Below are positions 43,687 through 54,182 of a stretch of DNA of 54,182 nt, piece after piece. The position numbers and the translations under genes are program-made. The DNA comes from a virus (Duplodnaviria > Heunggongvirae > Uroviricota > Caudoviricetes), in IMG/VR virus record IMGVR_UViG_2585427735_000009; one strand, written 5' to 3'. Each line of letters opens with the position of its first letter. Position 1 is the first letter of the stretch. The notes under the pieces are model-generated. The model was not told the origin of the DNA, searched no databases, and worked only from the letters and a program-made list of their open reading frames with translations.

Positions 43687-44104
43687 GTAACGCTGCGAGC
43701 GTTACAAGGTGAAAACAAATGGCTTCAAACTGGATAAAGCTCGAAGTTATTACGCCGGATAAGCCGGAAATATTCAGGCTTGCTGAGATTCTGAATATTG
43801 ATCCAGATGCCGCATTAGGGAAAGTCATTCGCTTCTGGGCATGGGCGGATCAACAAATGATAGACGGTAACGCAGAGTGTAACGCTCGAGGCGTTACAAA
43901 AAGTGCAATAGACCGTATCACTTTTATGGCTGGTTTTGCTGATGCGTTAATTCAGGTTGGATGGCTGGTCGAAAGTGATGGAGTGCTTTCACTACCAAAC
44001 TTTGAGCGTCATAACGGAAAAAGCTCGAAAAAACGGGCGGTTACAAACGAGAGAGTTACAAAAATACGCGAACTGAAGCGAAAAGGTAACGCTGCCAGCG
44101 TTAC
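43687..44104. repeat. Three perfect palindromes GTAACGC-N5-GCGTTAC plus GTTACAAA half-sites (putative iterons/origin)
   Basis: Palindromes at 43687..43705, 43879..43897, 44086..44104; extra half-sites near 43867, 44039 and 44054; one upstream of and two inside the ydaU reading frame. Confidence 0.55.
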
Positions 44105-44507
44105 ACAAACGGATCAAAAAGCGTTACCAGAGGAAGAGGAAGAGGAAGATATAAATACTGATCTCCCCCTAAATCCCCCTCGGCAAAAACGAGCGTCTAA
44201 ACAATTCGAGCCGGAGGCCATTGCTCTGCCCGACTGGTTGCCAGAAACACTCTGGAATGAGTGGGTCCAGTTCAGGCAGGCATTGCGAAAACCGATTCGA
44301 ACGGAGCAGGGCGCTAACGGGGCGATACGGGAACTGGAAAAATTCCGCCAGCAGGGTTTTACCCCTGAGCAGGTGATTCGACACAGCATCGCCAATGAAT
44401 ACCAGGGCTTGTTCGCGCCGAAAAGTGTTCGGCCTGAGACGTTGCTCCGACAGGTTAACACTGTCTCGTTTCCGGACAGTGCGATCCCGCCAGGCTTCAG
44501 GGGGTAA
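43719..44507 (+). CDS. ydaU: Replication initiation protein (lambda O-position, YdaU-like)
   Basis: 262-aa ORF directly upstream of DnaC-like gene; acidic linker (EEEEEEDINTD); contains iteron-like palindromes. Confidence 0.7.
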   Translation: MASNWIKLEVITPDKPEIFRLAEILNIDPDAALGKVIRFWAWADQQMIDGNAECNARGVTKSAIDRITFMAGFADALIQVGWLVESDGVLSLPNFERHNGKSSKKRAVTNERVTKIRELKRKGNAASVTQTDQKALPEEEEEEDINTDLPLNPPRQKRASKQFEPEAIALPDWLPETLWNEWVQFRQALRKPIRTEQGANGAIRELEKFRQQGFTPEQVIRHSIANEYQGLFAPKSVRPETLLRQVNTVSFPDSAIPPGFRG

Positions 44508-44513
44508 CTGACC

Positions 44514-45260
44514 ATGAAAAATATTGCGACAGGCGGCGTTCTGGAACGTATCCGCAGACTGGCCCCGCCACATGTAACCGCGCCATTCAGGACGGTGGCG
44601 GAGTGGCGCGAGTGGCAACTTGCAGAAGGCCAGAAACGTTGCGAGGAGATCAATCGCCAGAATCGTCAGTTGCGGGTGGAAAAAATTCTGAATCGCTCCG
44701 GCATCCAGCCGTTGCACCGCAAATGCTCGTTTTCGAATTACCAGGTGCAGAACGACGGCCAGCGATACGCGTTGAGCCAGGCGAAATCCATCGCCGATGA
44801 ACTGATGGTCGGGTGTACAAATTTTGCGTTTAGCGGAAAACCTGGTACCGGAAAAAACCATCTGGCGGCGGCTATCGGGAATCGCCTGCTGAAAAACGGT
44901 CAGACAGTGATTGTGGTTACCGTGGCTGATGTTATGAGTGCTCTACACGCCAGCTATGACGACGGGCAATCAGGCGAAAAATTTTTGCGGGAACTGTGCG
45001 AAGTGGATCTGCTGGTTCTTGATGAAATTGGCATTCAGCGCGAGACAAAAAACGAGCAGGTGGTACTGCACCAGATTGTTGATCGCCGGACAGCGTCGAT
45101 CCGCAGCGTGGGGATGCTGACAAACCTGAACTATGAGGCCATGAAAACATTGCTCGGCGAGAGGATTATGGATCGGATGACCATGAACGGCGGGCGATGG
45201 GTGAATTTTAACTGGGAGAGCTGGCGCCCGAATGTTGGTCAGCCAGGAATTGAGAAGTAA
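44514..45260 (+). CDS. ydaV: DnaC-like helicase loader (IstB-like AAA+ ATPase)
   Basis: 248 aa; Walker A GKPGTGKNHLAAAIG, Walker B LLVLDEIG. Confidence 0.85.
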   Translation: MKNIATGGVLERIRRLAPPHVTAPFRTVAEWREWQLAEGQKRCEEINRQNRQLRVEKILNRSGIQPLHRKCSFSNYQVQNDGQRYALSQAKSIADELMVGCTNFAFSGKPGTGKNHLAAAIGNRLLKNGQTVIVVTVADVMSALHASYDDGQSGEKFLRELCEVDLLVLDEIGIQRETKNEQVVLHQIVDRRTASIRSVGMLTNLNYEAMKTLLGERIMDRMTMNGGRWVNFNWESWRPNVGQPGIEK

Positions 45261-45282
45261 TTTTTACCGGGAGGAAATTTTA

Positions 45283-46008
45283 ATGGAGACCGTTTTTGAC
45301 GCACTGAAAGCAATGGGAAAAGCCTCTTCCCAGGAAGTGGCAGCACGTCTGGGAATGACCCGGGATGAGGCGATTAACGAGCTGTGGAAACTGAAGCGTC
45401 GTGGGGAAGCTGATAACAAGGGCCCGATGTGGTGGTTGACTCAAACCGACGAAAACGCATCTGTAGCACAGGCTTCTAAAGTGACAGCGCAAATGCTGAT
45501 CGAGGCGATTGAACAGCATGGCCCTAAAGCGGCTGATGAACTTGCACTGATATTCAGAATTACTTCCCGCAGGGTGAACTCATCGCTGGCTATGGCCATC
45601 AGCAAAGGTCGTCTGATTCGCGTAAATCAGAACGGTAAATTTCGTTACTGCCTGCCGGACGGTAATTTACCAGCAGAGCCGAAAGTTGTATCGGTAGTGA
45701 AAACACCTGGTAAAGGCTTTCCTCAGCCAGCCGGTGTTGCGTTACCAGTACAGGAAGCGGCAACACAGGAAGAAATTAAAACAGATACTGTGGGGGACAT
45801 TGTGCAGTCACTACCATCGTTCACTGAAACGCGAGCCAATGACCTGATTATACCATCGCTGCAAATGGCAAACCGCGAACTGCGCCGGGCGAAAAGTTAT
45901 GTCCAGAAGTGGGAGCGAGTCTGCGCCGCGCTGCGTGAGCTGAACAAGCACCAGGATATTGTCCGTCAGATTGTCGATTCCTCCAGTCGTATTGTGTCGG
46001 AAAAGTGA
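45283..46008 (+). CDS. Hypothetical winged-helix protein (YdaW position)
   Basis: ATG at 45283 with GGGAGGAAA RBS (METVFDALKAMGKASSQEVAARLGMTRDEAINELWKLKRRG...). Confidence 0.45.
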   Translation: METVFDALKAMGKASSQEVAARLGMTRDEAINELWKLKRRGEADNKGPMWWLTQTDENASVAQASKVTAQMLIEAIEQHGPKAADELALIFRITSRRVNSSLAMAISKGRLIRVNQNGKFRYCLPDGNLPAEPKVVSVVKTPGKGFPQPAGVALPVQEAATQEEIKTDTVGDIVQSLPSFTETRANDLIIPSLQMANRELRRAKSYVQKWERVCAALRELNKHQDIVRQIVDSSSRIVSEK

Positions 46009-46024
46009 TTCCTGGGGAGGGCTT

Positions 46025-46447
46025 ATGGCAAAAGTATTTACACAGGAAGAGCGAGAAAAAATTAAAGGGCAGATTGTTGATCTTGTACGCCAGAGCGGGC
46101 GAGAGACGTTACGACAACTGGAAGCTAAAACGGGGGCGACAAGATATCTGATAAGCGCTCTTGCTAGGGAGTTGGTTGCGAATGGTGATGTATACAACTC
46201 TGGCTATGGGTTATTTCCGTCTGAGCAGGCACGTCAAGACTGGCAAAACGCCCGCAAAAAACTATCGAGGGCAAAGGTGAAGAAACCAGTTGTGGTTGAT
46301 CTGGACCTTATTTGGTCATTACCAGACGGAGAAATACGTCGCTACGACAGGCGTCTGAACATAATTTGCCGTGAGTGCCGGAAGAGTGAAGTTATGCAGC
46401 GTGTATTAGCATTCTATCAGGGAAATGTTCGGTATTTATTGAAGTGA
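46025..46447 (+). CDS. Hypothetical protein with N-terminal wHTH-like region
   Basis: ATG at 46025 with GGGGAGGG RBS (MAKVFTQEEREKIKGQIVDLVRQSGRETLRQLEAKTGATRYL...). Confidence 0.45.
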   Translation: MAKVFTQEEREKIKGQIVDLVRQSGRETLRQLEAKTGATRYLISALARELVANGDVYNSGYGLFPSEQARQDWQNARKKLSRAKVKKPVVVDLDLIWSLPDGEIRRYDRRLNIICRECRKSEVMQRVLAFYQGNVRYLLK

Positions 46448-46656
46448 CGAGATTAAAGACCATTAATTCATATGTGAATTGACAGTTTCATGGCACAGGA
46501 TACGGCTAGCGTGGTTGTCTGTTTTGTGCCAGGGGCGGGCCTAACTAAGTTCACACAACATTGATTATTGAAGATTAGGTCAGAAATAAATAGGTTATTT
46601 TGATAATTTAGTTACGTTAGAATGCCGCAGTGTACAAAGTAAAAATGAGGAATAAT

Positions 46657-48018
46657 ATGACTCGGAGTGAAATAAACGTCTGGGATAAGAGACGAGGCAC
46701 CAATAGTCATCGTGTGGAGGAGATTCGATCTGAAGCTCAGCACGACCTTTCTCGACTGATTCACTCGTCTGCTTTCAGACGATTGCAATCCAAAACACAG
46801 GTTCTTGGTCTGGGTGAAAGTGATTTCTACCGCACACGACTGACTCATTCTATGGAAGTCGCACAAATCGGTTCAGGTCTTCTTGCTAAGCTGAAAATAA
46901 AATATAAAGGTAAAGAGCAAGAGCAATTTTTACCAGATAACGATCTTATGCAGGCAGTATGTCTCGCACATGATATTGGACATCCTCCATTTGGTCACGG
47001 CGGTGAGGTAGCTCTTAACTACTGTATGCAGGATTACGGTGGTTTTGAAGGAAACGGTCAGACACTTCGCATTCTCTCGAAACTAGATAAGTATACCGTT
47101 GAACACGGACTCGATCCTACACGCAGACTTCTGCTAGGCATACTGAAATATCCGGTTAAATACTCGGATCTAGTGGTTACAAAAGACAGAATCCCGGCCA
47201 CTATCGGATCGCCGAACTGGCTCTTTAAGTCATCTGATTTTAAACCTCCAAAATGCTATCTAGATTCAGAATGCGATGTTGTAGAATTTGCTCTTTCACC
47301 ATTTACTGAACAGGATCGGAGGCTTTTTACTTCCGTTGAAGATGGTCAAACTAAATCCGATCATAAAAAAGCTTCTTATAAAGCTCTCGATACAACCATC
47401 ATGGATCTTGCCGATGAAATTTCGTATTCGCTGCACGATTTGGAGGATGCTATTTCTCTCGGAATGGTGACACGAGAAATGTGGATGGAGCATTTCAGTG
47501 AATATGAAACCCTATTTACTAACTGCCATGGAGAAACATTTTCCGCAACATGTGAATCTGTCGCGGATAGCCTTTTTGGTGAAAGTTACAAGAGAAAAGA
47601 GTGCATCGGGATGCTGGTTCACCTGATGATTACAAGCGTTGAGCTTATTACAAAGAATCCAGCATTCGAATGTGGCATGCTCAAATATAATGCGGTCCTT
47701 CCGGAAGCGGTCGAAGCACTACGGTTTAAAATTTTCAAACTGGTCAAAAATAAAGTAATTAAGCATGAAAATGTACAGCAGCTTGAATTCAAGGGACAAA
47801 AGTTGATTGTTGAGCTTTTCGGTGTGCTGGCTAACGATCCGTGTCGGTTTCTACCGGCATCAACGAGGGAAATTTACGAGCGGCAGACTAGCTTGGACGA
47901 GAAGGCTGGTATGCGAGTCATTTGCGACTATGTTTCAGGGATGACTGATGACTATGCAACAAAGCTTTATGAGAAGATCCTTATTCCACGCAAAGGGTCT
48001 ATTTTTGACCATCTCTAA
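46657..48018 (+). CDS. dGTP triphosphohydrolase (Dgt-family HD-domain dGTPase); candidate anti-phage dNTP-depletion enzyme
   Basis: ATG at 46657 with GAGGA RBS; motifs AFRRLQSKTQV, RTRLTHSMEVAQIG, AHDIGHPPFGHGGE, LADEISYSLHDLEDA match Dgt HD-domain signatures as recalled; AT-rich relative to Rac core. Confidence 0.82.
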   Translation: MTRSEINVWDKRRGTNSHRVEEIRSEAQHDLSRLIHSSAFRRLQSKTQVLGLGESDFYRTRLTHSMEVAQIGSGLLAKLKIKYKGKEQEQFLPDNDLMQAVCLAHDIGHPPFGHGGEVALNYCMQDYGGFEGNGQTLRILSKLDKYTVEHGLDPTRRLLLGILKYPVKYSDLVVTKDRIPATIGSPNWLFKSSDFKPPKCYLDSECDVVEFALSPFTEQDRRLFTSVEDGQTKSDHKKASYKALDTTIMDLADEISYSLHDLEDAISLGMVTREMWMEHFSEYETLFTNCHGETFSATCESVADSLFGESYKRKECIGMLVHLMITSVELITKNPAFECGMLKYNAVLPEAVEALRFKIFKLVKNKVIKHENVQQLEFKGQKLIVELFGVLANDPCRFLPASTREIYERQTSLDEKAGMRVICDYVSGMTDDYATKLYEKILIPRKGSIFDHL

Positions 48019-48079
48019 TGCGGCAAGAATGATGCTCTGAGTTCAATTGACCTATAAACATTAACCAAGGCATCTACCA

Positions 48080-48099
48080 GGGGGATATCAAATCCCCCC
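48080..48099 (+). terminator. Hairpin GGGGGAT-ATCAA-ATCCCCC, candidate terminator after dGTPase gene
   Basis: 7-bp G/C-rich stem 62 nt after the dGTPase stop, followed by a weakly T-rich stretch (ATTCTGAATTTGTT). Confidence 0.4.
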
Positions 48100-48428
48100 A
48101 TTCTGAATTTGTTCGTGCAGAATCGGTGAACGTTCTCATCTGAGCGTTAAACGCCAATAATCGTTGATCTACATTGATCATTAATACACCTTAATACCAT
48201 TAGCGTCTTACTCCGTTATGAGAACAAACGCGAACTGACCTGCCCCCAGTATTAGTGACCTTCAGCTACGGTAACTTGTCCGCTTCGTGCCAGAAGCGGA
48301 CATCCATAGAGAAATAAGCGATCAGTTCTTAAATTTGTTGTGATTTTTTGATTTTTTTGTATTCGCAAAGGGATTTGTGTTGGTTGTATAATTACCTAAT
48401 ATTCATACAGTTGAATGGGAGATGTGGG

Positions 48429-49322
48429 ATGAAGTTCTCGTACAGACATGGTTTTGATCCTGAGTATAATAAAAAGCCGATACGGGAAGATGCTCCAGAG
48501 TGGCTTCGCTCTTTATTTTTTGTAACTGTCCTCGATAATTTTTTGTACATTGATGGTGATAGCCGCATTACGAATGATGAGAACAAGCCGTTGGGTATTA
48601 AGGCTTTGATCGAGCGACTTTGCGCAGAGAATGGTCAAGAAACAGATCATGAGGATTTCGATTCATGGTACTGCTATGATGCTTTGAAAGCGCGTTTGCA
48701 ACATATGCGTTGGTTTCAATTTTATGATGCTGTTGAGATTATCGGAGATCTATTAAGAAAAAGAGATGTAGAAAGAGGCCATACTTGGGGTAAGAAGGCA
48801 TTAGAAGACATTACTTTTACATCATATCGTCAGAAATTGAACGAGTTATTCGCATCTCGAAATATTGACTGGAAAATGAATTCTGCTGGTAGGTTAGAAA
48901 CACCACTACCAAATGAATTAGAACAAAAAATCGATGAAACTAACAACTTATTGCAAGACCAGTTTGAACCTGCAAGGAGGCACTATGTGAAAGCCCGGGC
49001 TTTTGCATTAGGTGCGCATAAGGATCCAGAAAATTCCATAAAAGAATCAATAAGTGCAATAGAAAGCATGTGTCGGACTTATTATCCTTCAGCCTCAACC
49101 TTGGGCGATGTATTAAAACTGATGAGAAAAGAAAACACTATCTCACCTATGCTTTTAACGGTGATAGAGAAATTTTACGCTTATACAAATGCAGAGCCAG
49201 CAGTAAGACATGGTAGCAACAAGGTTTCTTCTGTCTTGGAATACGATGCTGAATTCGTGTTGCATATATCAGCAGCATTTATTAGAACAATAATACAAAG
49301 AAAAGCTGTTTTGGATAACTAA
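48429..49322 (+). CDS. Hypothetical protein, possible Abi/HEPN-like abortive-infection candidate
   Basis: ATG at 48429 (MKFSYRHGFDPEYNKK...), about 297 aa, AT-rich; possible R-x6-H motif (RAFALGAH) in C-terminal half; upstream extended -10 TGTATAAT near 48386. Confidence 0.5.
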   Translation: MKFSYRHGFDPEYNKKPIREDAPEWLRSLFFVTVLDNFLYIDGDSRITNDENKPLGIKALIERLCAENGQETDHEDFDSWYCYDALKARLQHMRWFQFYDAVEIIGDLLRKRDVERGHTWGKKALEDITFTSYRQKLNELFASRNIDWKMNSAGRLETPLPNELEQKIDETNNLLQDQFEPARRHYVKARAFALGAHKDPENSIKESISAIESMCRTYYPSASTLGDVLKLMRKENTISPMLLTVIEKFYAYTNAEPAVRHGSNKVSSVLEYDAEFVLHISAAFIRTIIQRKAVLDN

Positions 49323-49562
49323 GTCAGACTTACAGCCAACTGACTGTCTCTTATTATTCAAAACATAATAATGTTAGGTCCGCTTATCGCACATCAGGGA
49401 CAACCATACTCAAATCTCCCACATTGCAGGAGATTTGAGTGTGAACACGTCACCGTGGAACAAAGACTGTATCATCGGTCAAAAAAGACCTGGTTATCTA
49501 GCAAAAACTTTTAACATACCAACAAACTTAATTTATTTAAATGCTATTAATACAACTAATGT

Positions 49563-50789
49563 TTAAAATATATATTTTATATCAACCCAATTTTTAGCAT
49601 TATTGTCAACTAAAGTAACGCTATGTCCATGACTTGAATTTATAGCATCGATTACTGATTGTGATGGGTGTCCATGTGAATGACCATCCGACTGAGCTAT
49701 AAACAAAACATTATCAAAATCCGCAATTATTTTTTGATTGAAATTTAATTCCGAACCATGATGAGGTAATGTCATCACCCTTACCGTTTTAATCACTTTT
49801 GAATAGAATTCAGCCCATTTATTATAATACAATGATGTATTAAGCTTTGAGTCACCTGTTAATAAAACAGATCTAATTCCTTTATCTCTATCAAAGAGAA
49901 AATGTCGCTCAACCCGACTATTTCTAAAACTAAACCACTCACGAGAAGGCTCATTAACAATTTTCATCTCAGCTTCTTGATTATTAATAATCAAGAGATT
50001 GATTGATATTACATTATGATCGCCAGCAAGTTTTAAATAACACTCGCGTAATTTCTTTCTTTCCCCCGTGCTAGTTAATATTTTAAGCATTTTTTTCTTA
50101 CTTAACTCAGTAAAACCATTTTCTATTAACTGCTGACTGAAAATTTCAATTTTCTTACGTGAACGGGGCGGTATCCAAGAAATAAATGACATTAGTGTAT
50201 CAGTTTTGTTTTCCCCAATCCTTTTAACCAACCAACGGTTACATTCAACATCTCCTTTGGAGTCAGATATTTTCATTGGTAAGCTTACAGCGCTATCCTT
50301 AATGTTTTCACTATTAAATATAGGAGGGTCAAAATTATCATCAATATCACAGGGGTAAAGCAAAGATATATCTACCTCAGGCAACCTTGATTTTATCCAT
50401 TTGACAGGATCAATGAGAAATTCCATAAAAAGACCTGACGTAGAATTAGAGCATAGCTCCGATGCAATTAAGTAATAGCTATCATGGATATCTAGGTATG
50501 GTAATACAACCTTGCGTATTTTGTTATCTACAAGCTGACATAAATGGTCAAATCCATTTATATGGTCTGAATCCAAATGAGAGATGTATACCACATCAAT
50601 ATATTTCTCATCAATATTAAAGAGAGATTTAGCCACATCCATCTCCCTACGCAACGCATTTAATTGGTCACTTCCGCAGTCATACACATAACTGTAAAGC
50701 AAACTACCATCCCTTCCCCTCAGTCCGCCTAAACTAAATCCACCCTGGCCAACGGGAAACAATCTTTTATGAAATACTTCTCCGCTCAT
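49563..50789 (-). CDS. Standalone metallo-beta-lactamase-fold hydrolase (ComEC-type motifs), candidate nuclease
   Basis: 408 aa, ATG at 50789 with AAGGA RBS; MBL motifs HLDSDH (HxHxDH), LTGDSKL and LPHHGS; very AT-rich. Confidence 0.7.
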   Translation of the reverse strand: MSGEVFHKRLFPVGQGGFSLGGLRGRDGSLLYSYVYDCGSDQLNALRREMDVAKSLFNIDEKYIDVVYISHLDSDHINGFDHLCQLVDNKIRKVVLPYLDIHDSYYLIASELCSNSTSGLFMEFLIDPVKWIKSRLPEVDISLLYPCDIDDNFDPPIFNSENIKDSAVSLPMKISDSKGDVECNRWLVKRIGENKTDTLMSFISWIPPRSRKKIEIFSQQLIENGFTELSKKKMLKILTSTGERKKLRECYLKLAGDHNVISINLLIINNQEAEMKIVNEPSREWFSFRNSRVERHFLFDRDKGIRSVLLTGDSKLNTSLYYNKWAEFYSKVIKTVRVMTLPHHGSELNFNQKIIADFDNVLFIAQSDGHSHGHPSQSVIDAINSSHGHSVTLVDNNAKNWVDIKYIF

Positions 50790-51503
50790 ATATCCTTCTT
50801 ACACCCTAACGTGATCATAAAATTGTCTTAAAGTTAAGTTTAAAGCTAAAAAGTCACAGCTCATTCCAACTCGTGAGCAATAGGAATGTATATTCAATCA
50901 GTTAGAGGATCAACCCGATTTTCTCTAATGAGATTTCGCAACGCAGTACGAACAGCAGCTACTTCTGCCATCTCATTAACAACCACACTGGACTACAATC
51001 CCCTAAGTTCTACAGACTGTAACCATATCCTCTTCACAGAAATAATCTGATTAATGCTGAAGGTCATCTTTCTCGACGCGAATGTATGACATAACAACCT
51101 CAGTTAATTATCTTTCGATAGAAAAATACCTTCACAAAAGGTTTAAGCAACCCATCACAAGACAACACGCTAAGCTTGCCTTGTAAGCGTCCTGCTTAAC
51201 CGAACAGTTCGCTTTCAGAGGATCTCCGGAGAACAGCTCCGATGCCTTATAAGGCCAATGCTCGCTCCTCGCTCACTGCGGACCTAAGGTTTGGTCAGCT
51301 TGTTCGCACTCTGCCAAAAGCGGGAGTTACTCCCATTCGGTGTTAATCAATGTAGAGCAGATCAATCAACGACAAAGAAAATGAGAGGCATATCACTACT
51401 CATATGAAAATTATTGTAGTAAAGTGAGCCGTAAGTTCATCATTTATAAATCATATAGCATATATGTTATATCAATTTTAATTTAAATGGCAGAATAATT
51501 ACC

Positions 51504-52208
51504 ATGGAAAAAATTAAAACTCCTTGTCCATATTGTAAAGGTGAAAAAAATTGCCACATAATAGGCCATAAAAAAAGAGAATGGAGTGAGGATGATGGGG
51601 GCAACTATTTTTGGGCTGAAAGTGAATACAAATTATTAGAGTGTATGGGGTGCGACGGAATATTTACATATATTAAATCCCGTCACAGTGAAGATTACGA
51701 CATTGAAAGAGATGAGTCAGGCTATGATTGTATGGTATATAACTATCATATATCAACATATCCCACTCAAGAGCAAGAAGAGATTAGACCAACTTGGTTT
51801 GGTGAGACATTAAACAAAGATCGTCAGCTGTATGTAATAATGAACGAAATGTACATCGCATTTCAAAATAAATCATTCATTTTAGCGGCGATTGGACTTA
51901 GAACTATTTTTGACAGAACAGTTGAGGTTCTAAATATTCATCCAGGATATACATTAGGCCAGAAGGTTGACATTCTTAAAGAGGAAGGTTTTATTGGGGA
52001 AACAGAAAGGAGCCAACTTAAAATTGTAACCGAAGCTGGCAACTCAGCTGCACACAGGACATGGGCACCGAACGAAACTGAATTTAAATCGCTTTTGGTA
52101 ATTATAGAAAATTTTGTAATGCGAACAATACTAAAAAATGAGGATATATTTAAGATTACAGAAAAATTACCTGCGAAATATCCAAGACCTCCCAAAAAGC
52201 AAGAATAA
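51504..52208 (+). CDS. Zinc-ribbon protein with DUF4145/HEPN-like C-terminal domain (candidate Abi-type effector)
   Basis: 234 aa; N-terminal CPYC-x-CH ... CMGCDG zinc ribbon; C-terminal AAIGLRTIFDR...GETERSQLKIVTEAGNSAAH resembling the DUF4145 GNxxxH signature as recalled; AT-rich. Confidence 0.55.
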   Translation: MEKIKTPCPYCKGEKNCHIIGHKKREWSEDDGGNYFWAESEYKLLECMGCDGIFTYIKSRHSEDYDIERDESGYDCMVYNYHISTYPTQEQEEIRPTWFGETLNKDRQLYVIMNEMYIAFQNKSFILAAIGLRTIFDRTVEVLNIHPGYTLGQKVDILKEEGFIGETERSQLKIVTEAGNSAAHRTWAPNETEFKSLLVIIENFVMRTILKNEDIFKITEKLPAKYPRPPKKQE

Positions 52209-52704
52209 TGTACGTAAGTGTAAATAGAGCTAAGAGATTATATATTGACTCTGGTTATCTCTATTAGCACATGCTTTTTGTAATGCCTTAACTGATTATT
52301 TAAACTCCTGTCAGCTTTTCGCTCAAAGCGGACTAAAGTGTTGGCTTGTGACTGACTTAGCGCATTTAAGGAAGTGGTGGTGGTGACGGGGTGTTGTGTC
52401 CCATTTCCACAGAATAAATCAGAGAAACTATAGCGGCTGTAATGGCAATCTATGGTCTTGCTATTGCTCTTATGGATCACCTTTCTGATTGATTTCATAT
52501 TGGCGAGGTAACGGGAGTTAAGTAGAATAGCTGCGGGTGCTTGAGGCTGTCTGCCTCGGGCATGAACACCAAAGGCAGATAGAGAAAAGCCCCAGTTAAC
52601 ATTACGCGTCCGGCAAGACGCTTAACATTAATCTGAGGCCACATCTATGCTTTGCATACGTAGATTAGCCTCTTACCGACCAAAAGGTCAAGGAGAAGCA
52701 GGCT

Positions 52705-52860
52705 ATGAAGCAGCAAAAGGCGATGTTAATCACCCTGATCGTCATCTGTTTAACCGTTATAGTGACGGTACTGGTAACGAGGAAAGACCTCTGCGAGGTA
52801 CGAATCCGAACCGACCAGACGGAGGTCGCTGTCTTCACAGCTTACGAACTTGGGGAGTAA
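52705..52860 (+). CDS. hokD: Hok-family membrane toxin (HokD/RelF-like)
   Basis: Hand translation MKQQKAMLITLIVICLTVIVTVLVTRKDLCEVRIRTDQTEVAVFTAYELGE (51 aa); below ORF-track cutoff. Confidence 0.8.
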   Translation: MKQQKAMLITLIVICLTVIVTVLVTRKDLCEVRIRTDQTEVAVFTAYELGE

Positions 52861-52882
52861 GAGGACCAGCGGGGAGAAATCC

Positions 52883-53053: not shown

Positions 53054-54166
53054 TTAGTTCTTCTTTTCGGATCCGGCACTTCTGGGGGGGAAATCCAGCG
53101 ATGGCTGGATTATGTCGTCAATTAAAAATGCGGCGAGTAGATTAGCAAATATCCACGCTTTCGCGAGTTCAGGTTCCTTTGCACGCAAAGCATCCAGGTG
53201 CAGCAAACTTTTGAGCCGCTTAAAAGCCAGTTCAATTTGCCATCGCAGACGGTAACAATCAGCCACTTGCTCTGCTGAATATTCATCTTCCGGTAATGAT
53301 GTTAGCAATAGCACATGGCCCGCTGCTTCCAGCGTTTCCGCCTGAACTACTCGTCCTTTTCGACGATTCTCGCTGAGCAGTCGGGTTTTACTGATTAATG
53401 CTTTTTCGGGAGGAAGTGATACGGCAATGAGACGTGCCGGAAAGGGAGCTCCGGCTTTTTTATTACCTGAATTGCCTATCATTACAGTGGTTTCACCGTT
53501 CTTACCGCAATCCAGCCCGCGCAGAAAACCCATCATGTCAAAGCGCATTCCTTCTGCAGTTAACCAGCGCAATCCTCGCCAGTGAACCCGGACGATATAA
53601 TCAGCTTCTCCAAAAGCAAGTGAGCGGATACATTCGGGACGCGAACCGAATCCCCGGTCAGCAATGCGTATCTCGTCTGCCGTTTGCGCAAATCGGTCCA
53701 GCCGTTCAGCGTCTCTGCTGTCGGTTAGCTCAAAATCAGTGAACTGACAGGTATGAGGATCATATCCCATATGTAGTCGCCATTCAGCGCTGCCGCCCCC
53801 GGGCGCACTGATTGCTGTTCCATCGACAAGACGCAATCTCTTTCCGCTTGTACAACCCGTAACTGCGGCGCGTACAGCAAGTGTTTGTGCGGCAAGTATG
53901 CCAAACCAGTCGGCGGCATTCCGCAGCCGCTTCAGGAGAGCCACGTCAGATAATGTTGCAACGTCATGGAGCTGAGCCCATGCAGTGACTTCACGTAATG
54001 ACATCCCCCCGGGGCCGTAAGCCAGCCCCAGACGTAGCAGAGTTGCAGCATCACGAATTTCGCGGCGGCGGGTTAGAGCCCCGGCATTACGTGCCGAAGT
54101 ATCCAGTTCTTCGGGCTTACCAATATGGGCCAGAATTGCTGACCAGTTATCGTGAGAGTAATTCAT
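53054..54166 (-). CDS. IS186 transposase (IS4 family, DDE)
   Basis: ATG at 54166 (MNYSHDNWSAILAHIGKPEELDTSARNAG...), 370 aa. Confidence 0.85.
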   Translation of the reverse strand: MNYSHDNWSAILAHIGKPEELDTSARNAGALTRRREIRDAATLLRLGLAYGPGGMSLREVTAWAQLHDVATLSDVALLKRLRNAADWFGILAAQTLAVRAAVTGCTSGKRLRLVDGTAISAPGGGSAEWRLHMGYDPHTCQFTDFELTDSRDAERLDRFAQTADEIRIADRGFGSRPECIRSLAFGEADYIVRVHWRGLRWLTAEGMRFDMMGFLRGLDCGKNGETTVMIGNSGNKKAGAPFPARLIAVSLPPEKALISKTRLLSENRRKGRVVQAETLEAAGHVLLLTSLPEDEYSAEQVADCYRLRWQIELAFKRLKSLLHLDALRAKEPELAKAWIFANLLAAFLIDDIIQPSLDFPPRSAGSEKKN

Positions 54167-54182
54167 CGGCACGTTAAATCAT

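Follow-up and report, generated by a model that had tools for sequence, protein, structure and literature searches.

The locus examined here raises the question of what four adjacent genes in an AT-rich block of a Rac-like prophage are doing next to a hok toxin gene: whether they cooperate, serve the prophage itself, or form a stack of unrelated single-gene anti-phage systems, as had been proposed from the sequence alone. We analysed the whole stretch of 54,182 nucleotides (hereafter the window) and denote the four genes g1-g4 in map order (Table 1). The reading we favour, at a probability of about 0.7, is that a Rac-like lambdoid prophage has its variable cargo slot here, holding four unrelated genes that were acquired separately and that each most likely exclude phages on their own.

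A cargo slot of low GC content in a Rac-like prophage

The predicted AT-rich block was borne out by a composition count. Positions 46450-52882 have 39.0% GC versus 50.8% for the whole window and form the window's minimum-GC stretch at the 6.4-kb size, while the replication module (43719-46447) has 50.5% GC and the remaining left arm of the prophage 46.3%. The GC3 values of g1, g2, g3 and g4 are 0.38, 0.33, 0.28 and 0.28, respectively, compared with 0.43-0.62 for the neighbour genes. The host element is, as proposed, a Rac-like prophage, here of E. coli, and its site is ttcA. The island contains g1-g4 and is flanked by the DUF977 gene of the replication module and by hokD. On the right side, the expected hok toxin followed by IS186 was recovered as well: the sok match at 52535-52710 scores 105.2 bits in Rfam (gathering score 59), the Hok/Gef peptide matches Pfam HOK_GEF at 5.3e-21 (74.4 bits), and the peptide with its overlapping sok RNA identifies a hok/sok locus. 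The IS186/IS421-type transposase gene lies beyond it; PGAP labels the same IS in a colinear genome as IS421 family.

Table 1. Features of the cargo slot and its borders (window coordinates)
Feature	Coordinates	Strand	Evidence
DUF977 gene, closing the Rac replication module and bounding the slot on the left	46025..46447	+	Pfam DUF977 4.3e-30; coordinates identical to PGAP annotation of colinear NZ_CP148277.1
g1, predicted anti-phage dGTPase (HD + HD_assoc), 453 aa	46657..48018	+	NCBIfam, PADLOC, Pfam
g2, AbiJ-NTD4 protein with conserved C-terminal helical domain, 297 aa	48429..49322	+	Pfam, PADLOC PDC-S32, alignment
15-bp inverted repeat, 93% complementary, 9-nt loop, between convergent g2 and g3	49405..49443	.	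Repeat search
g3, solitary MBL-fold metallo-hydrolase, ComEC-like core with inserted helical region of ~140 aa, 408 aa	49563..50789	-	Pfam, alignment, AF2, Foldseek
g3 leader, ~485 nt, accompanies g3 in other hosts	50790..51275	-	Cross-host DNA identity
g4, Cys4 zinc ribbon (C8, C11, C47, C50) in beta-rich N-domain and DUF4145/HEPN C-domain (R133, H184 invariant), 234 aa	51504..52208	+	
A7 homopolymer at g4 codons 14-16; strains RM9513 and ET490 have A6 and hence a frameshift	51544..51550	+	DNA alignment, annotations
hok/sok type I toxin-antitoxin locus, bounding the slot on the right (hok CDS 52705-52860)	52535..52860	+	Rfam sok, Pfam HOK_GEF; hokD in annotation of relatives
IS4-family (IS186/IS421-type) transposase gene, inserted past hok; element reaches the window end	53054..54172	-	

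The gene arrangement follows the original prediction less closely. Instead of alternating, the orientation reads + + - + +, with g3 the only inverted gene, and the intergenic gaps among g1-g4 range from 240 to 714 bp. Of the separate start signals claimed for each gene, Shine-Dalgarno sequences were seen for g1-g3, whereas promoter-like sites (19 versus 19.0 in shuffled sequence) and terminator-like sites (4 versus 4.3) showed no excess. The inverted repeat between g2 and g3 is not followed by a T run and is a possible two-way terminator for these genes.

The whole block is kept at >99% in 9 of 5426 complete E. coli genomes. In K-12 Rac, where late genes had been expected, there is a deletion at the slot position; in intact relatives the slot is bounded by the DUF977 gene on the left and by hokD/DUF1367/DUF1364/DUF1133 on the right. 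The slot lies between the replication module on one side and hokD, nin-like and Q-like genes on the other. Alternative cargo was observed there in other strains, namely an ABC-three-component system, a block of adenosine deaminase, NTP pyrophosphatase and SIR2, an alpha/beta hydrolase, and QueH. The partial islands of strains E1 and ET490 were considered as separate modules and rejected, as they are IS3/IS1-mediated deletions. The hotspots of P2 and P4 (Rousset et al. 2022, PMC9122126) are likewise fixed slots surrounded by conserved phage genes, with strain-variable and mostly defence-type cargo; the present slot differs in that its carrier is a lambdoid prophage of Rac/Qin-like type and its borders are the DUF977 gene and hokD. 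A shallow literature search did not find this slot described as a hotspot.

A dGTPase of a curated family and an AbiJ-NTD4 protein

The proposal of a Dgt-family dGTPase was upheld for g1 by NCBIfam NF041026 (559.6 bits, cut-off 400; residues 18-450 of the 462-aa ORF) and by the PADLOC dGTPase model (PDLC02374, 1.3e-144). Matches to Pfam HD (2.3e-7) and HD_assoc (1.6e-18) and to phrog_21998 (3.5e-197) were also obtained. The better start is the ATG at 46657, which is the PGAP start and has a GAGGA Shine-Dalgarno sequence. Compared with the anti-phage dGTPases of Tal et al. (2022), g1 shows no detected difference, its match to the curated model running from end to end, and judged by these profiles it is a member of this family. 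It would be expected to hydrolyse dGTP upon infection and so starve phage DNA synthesis. At 96.9% identity, g1 also occurs in other E. coli beside an integrase, with g2-g4 absent.

The other three genes had been described as Abi-like, MBL-fold and zinc-ribbon/DUF4145-like, and genes of all three kinds were found; that none could be assigned to a named defence system holds for g3 and largely for g2 and g4. For g2, the ATG at 48429 rather than 48348 was taken as the start. The protein matches Pfam AbiJ_NTD4 at 34.3 bits (cut-off 34), as do all 22 aligned homologues (best 1.7e-32). Its sole PADLOC match is PDC-S32 (PDLC04997, 1e-33; residues 2-292 on profile positions 7-280 of 285), which places g2, by profile, in this computational candidate family; no paper mentioning PDC-S32 was found in a literature search. 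With AbiJ of Lactococcus and PDC-S32, g2 shares the AbiJ_NTD4 N-domain, the full-length PDC-S32 match and the single-gene form, but its conserved motif is an adjacent R261-H262 rather than Rx4-6H; N203, K206 and E207 are the other residues invariant in the alignment. AbiJ is held to have a HEPN domain (PMC13064643). The C-terminal domain of g2 has no Pfam HEPN or Abi_C match at E<=1, and hhalign placed its H262 on H184 of the g4 HEPN in a weak match (probability 2.8%). The N-domain of g2 would sense infection and release a C-terminal HEPN-like RNase, resulting in abortive infection. Homologues occur alone in a Dickeya ICE-like region; in Pseudoalteromonas the neighbour is a SIR2-TPR gene, and in Klebsiella the setting is a small islet. 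The exact g2 protein was found on at least 1000 contigs, exceeding g3 and g4.

A zinc-ribbon HEPN protein with RAZR architecture

Across 116 g4-family sequences, C8 and C47 of the zinc ribbon never vary, and C11 and C50 are nearly invariant; in the C-domain R133, D137, R138 and H184 are invariant and R185 nearly so. Position 176 is Thr (Ile/Val in two distant homologues), and the consensus is D-A-G-S-A-A-A-H-R. The structure model has a beta-rich N-domain of ~85 aa with seven strands. The family numbers 2722 representative clusters at full length. No PADLOC match was obtained for g4, and the PD-T7-4 model, which we take to be included in PADLOC-DB 2.0.0, was matched by none of the 116 family representatives. 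No PDB chain was matched by g4, and neither sequence nor fold searches gave a RAZR chain.

RAZR is PD-T7-4 (Vassallo et al. 2022; Zhang et al., Nature 2026, PMC13017515; sequence RRL46918.1), which has catalytic R146/H154 (PMC13017515) and is activated by assembly around a phage ring protein, the portal or Gp77. g4 resembles it in the N-terminal Cys4 zinc ribbon, the C-terminal DUF4145 with HEPN fold and invariant His, the similar size (234 versus ~219 aa) and the occurrence of a single protein as solitary mobile-element cargo. However, the N-domain of g4 is larger and the linker longer, and the catalytic Arg eight residues ahead of the His is not matched, with Thr at the position of R146 (RAZR residues per PMC13017515). 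By profile search and by comparison with these published residues, g4 belongs to a distinct sequence family with the RAZR architecture. By analogy with RAZR, the zinc-ribbon domain would bind a phage protein assembly and switch on the HEPN RNase, stopping translation. Homologues of g4 are solitary on ICEs and plasmids, adjoining Mrr-like, AbiTii and toxin-antitoxin genes, and in another prophage type they lie between the integrase and invertase/tail-fibre genes. In strains RM9513 and ET490, which carry the A6 frameshift, g4 is annotated only as a 158-aa remnant. Altogether, 381 contigs carry the intact g4 protein and 122 carry the remnant, and since about a quarter of the copies are frameshifted, g4 is dispensable.

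These frameshifts would also fit an alternative in which g2-g4 protect against no phage, being selfish modules for addiction or stress or else cargo in decay, and the dGTPase is the sole functional defence. HEPN proteins also serve as toxin-antitoxin toxins, a hok/sok addiction locus adjoins the island, the island has been eroded repeatedly by IS elements, and the slot also carries cargo that does not look like defence (QueH and the alpha/beta hydrolase). On the other hand, no conserved antitoxin-like partner ORF was found beside g2, g3 or g4, nor any tandem RNA repeat like those of type III antitoxins. The catalytic and zinc ligands are invariant or nearly so across very large families, which argues for maintained function, and RAZR, with the same architecture as g4, is non-toxic alone and yet defends (PMC13017515). 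We consider this alternative rather unlikely.

A solitary MBL-fold hydrolase and its leader

The protein encoded by g3 matches Pfam Lactamase_B at 25 bits. H71, D75, H76, D313, H343, H344 and H374 are invariant in 88 homologues, and all metal-ligand motifs are kept, in a variant form: S-H-x-D-x-D-H replaces the usual H-x-H-x-D-H, the second His being changed to Asp. The AF2 model (pLDDT 86.7, pTM 0.90) has the ComEC MBL nuclease domain as its closest structural match (Foldseek top match 9ic4, E 2.8e-9). A match to the Competence domain is absent, and g3 falls outside ComEC/Rec2, in which the MBL domain is joined to a membrane competence domain. Scores for g3 are far below the curated cut-offs of Avs1a (31 bits versus 420), 6A-MBL (23.7 versus 220) and ComEC TIGR00361 (15.8 versus 190). 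As a ComEC-like MBL-fold metallo-nuclease with a helical addition, g3 would cut nucleic acid, probably DNA.

The MBL fold and the motifs LPHHGS and SHxDxDH are common to g3 and to the Lamassu LmuA-hydrolase, AVAST type 1 Avs1a, RT-associated MBL and DefensePredictor DS-42, but g3 is solitary, carries the additional ~140 aa region, and has matches that span only 50-95 residues. They comprise weak C-terminal matches to LmuA (2.7e-12, residues 306-400 only), RTasMBL and Avs1a, and a BLASTP alignment to the DS-42 MBL that is limited to the motifs. None of the partner genes of these MBL proteins (SMC/LmuB/C, Avs1b STAND NTPase, RT, DS-42B/C) was found in the window or in 37 loci of g3 homologues, where the sole recurrent neighbour is a NucS_C-like gene at six distant loci. 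On these sequence comparisons, g3 is assignable to no named defence system.

At least four prophage types carry g3. It is solitary cargo at the tail-fibre end in Enterobacter and between Q and lysis genes in Proteus, and homologues adjoin ogr in two P2-like prophages (39-43%, a tie to the P2 hotspots) or lie beside HNH/GTPase/WYL genes. The protein evolves fast, as its amino-acid identity is 82% where third-position identity is 84%. The leader of g3 is 75-87% identical in Enterobacter, Proteus and two Logan contigs, compared with 66-82% at the 4-fold degenerate sites of g3 and ~45-50% farther upstream. With no codon periodicity, no Rfam match and folding z-scores of -0.75 and -1.48, the leader is non-coding as far as tested.

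The spread of g3 among prophage types would also be expected of a phage-side tool, either an Apyc1-like phosphodiesterase directed against host cyclic-nucleotide immune signals or a lytic-growth nuclease directed against host or competitor DNA. Faint matches to Anti-Pycsar_Apyc1 occur in some distant homologues, and phosphodiesterase 7dck is in the Foldseek list (probability 0.98). However, the Apyc1 score is 20.6 bits versus a threshold of 50 and covers only the shared N-terminal metal motif, and the best structural match is the ComEC DNA nuclease domain rather than the phosphodiesterase (E 2.8e-9 versus 1.6e-2). The LmuA model, from a defence system, is matched by all 88 homologues, and g3 occupies moron slots with its own leader, outside the early and late operons; beside HNH/GTPase/WYL genes there is no obvious phage. 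This role for g3 is improbable.

It is tentatively possible that g3 is a new type of single-gene defence: a ComEC-like MBL nuclease standing alone, with an H-x-D-x-D-H site and a fast-evolving helical insert, which moves among prophages of lambdoid, P2-like and other types along with a non-coding ~485-nt leader that might control or sense. In parallel, the g4 family may form a further class of RAZR-like zinc-ribbon HEPN sensors, unrelated to RAZR in sequence and directed at other phage assemblies.

Independent mobility and the defence reading

Homologues of g2, g3 and g4 are each solitary, with no common neighbour, in unrelated prophages, ICEs and plasmids. In deposited phage genomes none of these genes was found at E<=1e-5, save weak partial g2 matches. 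Cooperation of g1-g4 as one multi-gene system, for instance with convergent g2 and g3 as sensor and effector or a dGTPase with accessory nucleases, would suit their adjacency in a single low-GC, highly conserved block and the intergenic hairpin common to g2 and g3, but it is very improbable given that g2, g3 and g4 homologues were never together outside the island lineage at the loci examined, that the dGTPase is found without the other genes, that the genes are widely spaced in mixed orientation and that g2 is far commoner than g3 or g4; the E1 and ET490 partial islands are uninformative on this point because they are IS3/IS1 deletions.

The originally proposed stack of single-gene defences is well supported in silico, because the g2, g3 and g4 homologues are solitary elsewhere and the cargo of the slot varies, and g1 passes the curated cut-offs. 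Weighing against it are the purely computational standing of PDC-S32, the missing HEPN or Abi_C match of g2, the Thr at the R146 position of g4 together with the failure of its family to match PD-T7-4 or RAZR, the variant motif of g3 and the restriction of its defence-family matches to the C-terminal motifs, the dispensability of g4, and the absence of g2-g4 from deposited phage genomes but for the weak partial g2 matches. The activities and triggers of g2-g4 and their role in defence are what we infer from these observations.

A locus of this kind is common: prophage defence hotspots typically look like this, and its value lies in the candidates it supplies, not in any surprise. Current views are not overturned, as prophage defence hotspots and HEPN/nuclease abortive-infection genes are already well known. 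What the locus offers is three compact single-gene candidates. If the reading is true, g4 would extend the RAZR principle, in which a zinc-ribbon sensor gates a HEPN RNase, to a far larger and sequence-distinct family, and with g3 an MBL nuclease would for the first time be shown to defend on its own, with no partner genes. In Rac/Qin-like prophages, the interval from the DUF977 gene to hokD is a variable cargo slot worth mining.

Composition and gene content of the cargo island

The locus is a prophage cargo hotspot that combines one known defence gene with three solitary nuclease-type candidates. Sliding windows give a GC content of 0.50-0.56 for the replication genes at 44-46 kb, only 0.30-0.44 across 46.25-52.5 kb, and about 0.50 again once hok and the IS are reached. 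By segment, GC is 39.0% in the island, compared with 50.8% for the window, 50.5% for the replication module and 46.3% for the remaining prophage arm. The AT-rich block proposed in the original prediction was therefore recovered by computation, the island being the 6.4-kb stretch with the lowest GC anywhere in the window. The same shift is visible at third codon positions, where GC3 equals 0.38, 0.33, 0.28 and 0.28 in the dGTPase, AbiJ-NTD4, MBL-fold and zinc-ribbon/DUF4145 genes, respectively, versus 0.43-0.62 in the four preceding genes.

ORF listing and family scans found all four predicted cargo genes, namely the dGTPase, Abi-like and zinc-ribbon/DUF4145 genes and, on the minus strand, the MBL-fold gene. 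The predicted hok was likewise found, with an Rfam match to sok, as was the predicted IS, whose transposase belongs to the IS4 family and is of the IS186/IS421 type. The alternating orientation did not hold, as the real order is + + - + +, while the overall picture of a prophage cargo island with defence-type genes was right in substance. Matches to promoter and terminator consensus sequences did not exceed the frequency obtained with shuffled sequence. A 15-bp inverted repeat lacking a T tract lies between the convergent AbiJ-NTD4 and MBL-fold genes and is a possible two-way terminator.

Coordinates of the island, its genes and related features in homologous loci
Feature	Location	Strand	Remark
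DUF977 gene	46025-46447		ends the replication module
Cargo island	46450-52882		
dGTPase gene	46657-48018	+	ATG start at 46657, preceded by GAGGA Shine-Dalgarno
AbiJ-NTD4 gene	48429-49322	+	ATG start at 48429
Inverted repeat	49405-49443		
MBL-fold gene	49563-50789	-	
Leader of MBL-fold gene	50790-51275	-	about 485 nt
Leader copy	L002:7480-8000		
Leader copy	L003:7480-8000		
Leader copy	L177:143-651		Logan/metagenomic contig
Leader copy	L178:1951-2500		Logan/metagenomic contig
MBL-fold homologue	L004:8001-9547		Serratia
MBL-fold homologue	L179:341-1873		metagenomic contig
NucS_C-like gene	L016:7170-8285		
NucS_C-like gene	L017		
NucS_C-like gene	L020		
NucS_C-like gene	L054		
NucS_C-like gene	L018:3163-4188		
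NucS_C-like gene	L023:4829-5854		
Zinc-ribbon/DUF4145 gene	51504-52208	+	
A7 run in zinc-ribbon/DUF4145 gene	51544-51550		codons 14-16
Alternative cargo block	L169:7929-11002		E. coli 2023CK-01687

The slot between the DUF977 gene and hokD

In relatives whose right arm is intact, hokD, DUF1367, DUF1364, DUF1133 (Q-like), lysis genes, trkG and head genes come next after the island. This gene order identifies the slot as the lambdoid interval between replication and antitermination genes. The cargo in this slot varies between prophages: after the DUF977 gene, other Rac/Qin-like prophages carry an ABC-three-component system, an alpha/beta hydrolase in one case and QueH in another. A block in the same slot of a further Rac-like prophage, that of E. 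coli 2023CK-01687, encodes a TetR regulator, an adenosine deaminase, a non-canonical purine NTP pyrophosphatase and SIR2, and looks like a nucleotide-targeting defence operon.

Of 5426 complete E. coli genomes, 9 have the whole block, with identities of 99.2-99.9%. In a larger protein collection, the exact DUF4145 protein occurred on 381 contigs, the main MBL-fold allele on 536 and the AbiJ-NTD4 protein on at least 1000. The partial islands of E1 (dGTPase to MBL-fold genes) and ET490 (DUF4145 gene and hok) were considered as separate modules; they are actually IS3- and IS1-bounded deletions of one island and hence provide no evidence of modularity.

The dGTPase and AbiJ-NTD4 genes

The dGTPase scored 559.6 bits against a cut-off of 400 for the NCBIfam family 'anti-phage deoxyguanosine triphosphatase' and 1.3e-144 with the PADLOC dGTPase model, and contains HD and HD_assoc domains. 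By these profile matches it is assigned to the validated anti-phage dGTPase family, which Tal et al. in 2022 are said to have found to deplete dGTP in infection. A homologue with 96.9% identity lies beside an integrase in other E. coli, without the remaining three cargo genes. For those three, a defence role is suggested by domain type and genomic association; their peptides were not found in the accessible portions of the DefensePredictor supplements.

The second protein matches Pfam AbiJ_NTD4 at 34.3 bits, just at the threshold of 34; the match is present in all 22 aligned homologues, the best at 1.7e-32. It also matches the PADLOC candidate defence family PDC-S32 over its full length (1e-33), for which a literature search found no publications. 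Alignment revealed invariant H186, D200, N203, K206, E207, S210, E213, R261 and H262 in the C-terminal half, and Pfam gave no HEPN or Abi_C match. Profile-profile alignment with the DUF4145 family placed H262 on the catalytic histidine of the latter, weakly and with a probability of only 2.8%. According to a 2026 review (PMC13064643), HEPN signals in lactococcal AbiJ are only weak, its mechanism is unknown, and the mutations that allow escape from it lie in single-strand annealing proteins. Dickeya, Pseudoalteromonas and Klebsiella have solitary homologues in unrelated settings, and 69 viral contigs of IMG/VR hold relatives. A search near the AbiJ-NTD4 and DUF4145 genes found no tandem repeats resembling type III antitoxins.

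The MBL-fold gene and its leader

We found 375 homologues of the MBL-fold protein at E<=0.001. Among 88 aligned sequences, the metal-site residues S70, H71, D75, H76, D313, P342-H343-H344-G345 and H374 are invariant, and the family motif is H-x-D-x-D-H, not H-x-H-x-D-H. AlphaFold modelled the protein with confidence (pLDDT 86.7, pTM 0.90). The sole strong PDB match of the model is the ComEC MBL nuclease domain 9ic4 (E 2.8e-9, TM 0.71 by target), which the protein exceeds in length by about 140 residues; far weaker matches were CPSF73, RNase J and a phosphodiesterase. Partial PADLOC matches to LmuA, RT-associated MBL and Avs1a were obtained for 88, 87 and 45 of the 88 homologues, respectively, and the protein falls well below the curated cut-offs. 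Matches to Apyc1-like proteins were also sub-threshold, and this assignment was rejected. So was DS-42, a validated three-gene system of an MBL protein and two other genes, whose MBL protein is a different one with only motifs in common.

Close homologues (82-91% identity) are solitary: in Enterobacter as cargo at the tail-fibre end adjoining umuDC, in a Proteus prophage between Q and lysis genes, and on a Logan contig beside HNH, GTPase and WYL genes. Homologues with 39-43% identity occupy another prophage cargo position, directly beside ogr where two P2-like prophages end, one in Serratia and one on a metagenomic contig. Neighbour clustering across 37 loci recovered no conserved partner gene except a NucS_C-like gene in six. 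This gene, whose product of 340-370 aa has a NucS_C-like endonuclease domain, adjoins six distant alphaproteobacterial and Pseudomonas homologues (27-32% identity), and the pair may constitute a version of the family with two genes. The E. coli and Proteus MBL-fold genes are 91% identical at codon positions 1+2 and 84% identical at position 3, and their products share 82% of amino acids. Amino acid change is fast relative to silent change, as expected under diversifying or relaxed selection.

In E. coli, Enterobacter and Proteus, as well as on metagenomic contigs, the region upstream of the gene is co-inherited with it. This leader is 75-87% identical, compared with 66-82% for 4-fold degenerate sites of the gene and about 45-50% for sequence further upstream. 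The leader is conserved only slightly more than expected under neutrality. The leader has an invariant block, TTACAAGGCAAGCTT, with which collection scans recovered only the same lineage. It was rejected as a gene, having neither codon periodicity nor a stable small ORF (a 30-aa ORF is broken in the L177 contig), and as a structured RNA, with nothing matched in Rfam and folding z-scores short of significance; covariation across 4-5 sequences was uninformative.

The zinc-ribbon/DUF4145 gene

Homologues at identities of 40-92% are full-length (228-237 aa) and share invariant C8, C11, C47 and C50 (the Cys4 ribbon), R133, D137, R138 and H184. An exhaustive profile search returned 2722 representative clusters, 279 of them at E<=1e-30, with full-length coverage in nearly all matches listed; C8, C47, R133 and H184 are invariant in 116 family representatives. 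In the predicted model (pLDDT 83.3), the N-domain is seven-stranded and the C-domain helical; the family matches phrog_1305. Solitary relatives on ICEs and plasmids adjoin Mrr-like, AbiTii, endonuclease and toxin-antitoxin genes, and in a different prophage type relatives lie between integrase and invertase/tail-fibre genes. Small ORFs upstream of the gene in two homologous loci (L010 and L013) are mutually unrelated and the window has none, which dismisses a conserved upstream ORF. DS-38 of DefensePredictor (zinc finger and HEPN, 366 aa) is a different protein.

The domain architecture is that of RAZR (PD-T7-4), a protein of about 219 aa. When the zinc-finger domain of RAZR binds ring proteins of phages (portal, Gp77), 24 copies come together, and its DUF4145-HEPN RNase (R146, H154) then cuts RNA and halts translation (PMC13017515). 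However, our protein has Thr where RAZR has R146. PADLOC matched neither it nor its 116 relatives, and three queries with phmmer or hmmsearch gave no matching PDB chain. By these searches and the published residues, it is not detectably a RAZR-family member. Given the shared architecture but no detectable homology, it is reasonable to suppose that it may work like RAZR, although it is not a RAZR.

In RM9513 and ET490, the A7 run is A6, and the resulting frameshift cuts the protein after 16 codons; PGAP annotates a 158-aa remnant, present on 122 contigs versus 381 for the intact protein. A PGAP start error was rejected since the A7-to-A6 frameshift is real and PGAP gives the full 234 aa elsewhere. 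Repeated inactivation or phase variation could underlie this difference, or errors in assembly could explain part of it.

Implications

The kinds of protein involved are all already known: abortive-infection proteins with HEPN domains, sensors that pair a zinc ribbon with HEPN, and MBL nucleases acting as defence effectors. Best worth experiment are the MBL-fold gene, as a stand-alone MBL protein, and the DUF4145 family, as a putative RAZR-like but unrelated lineage.
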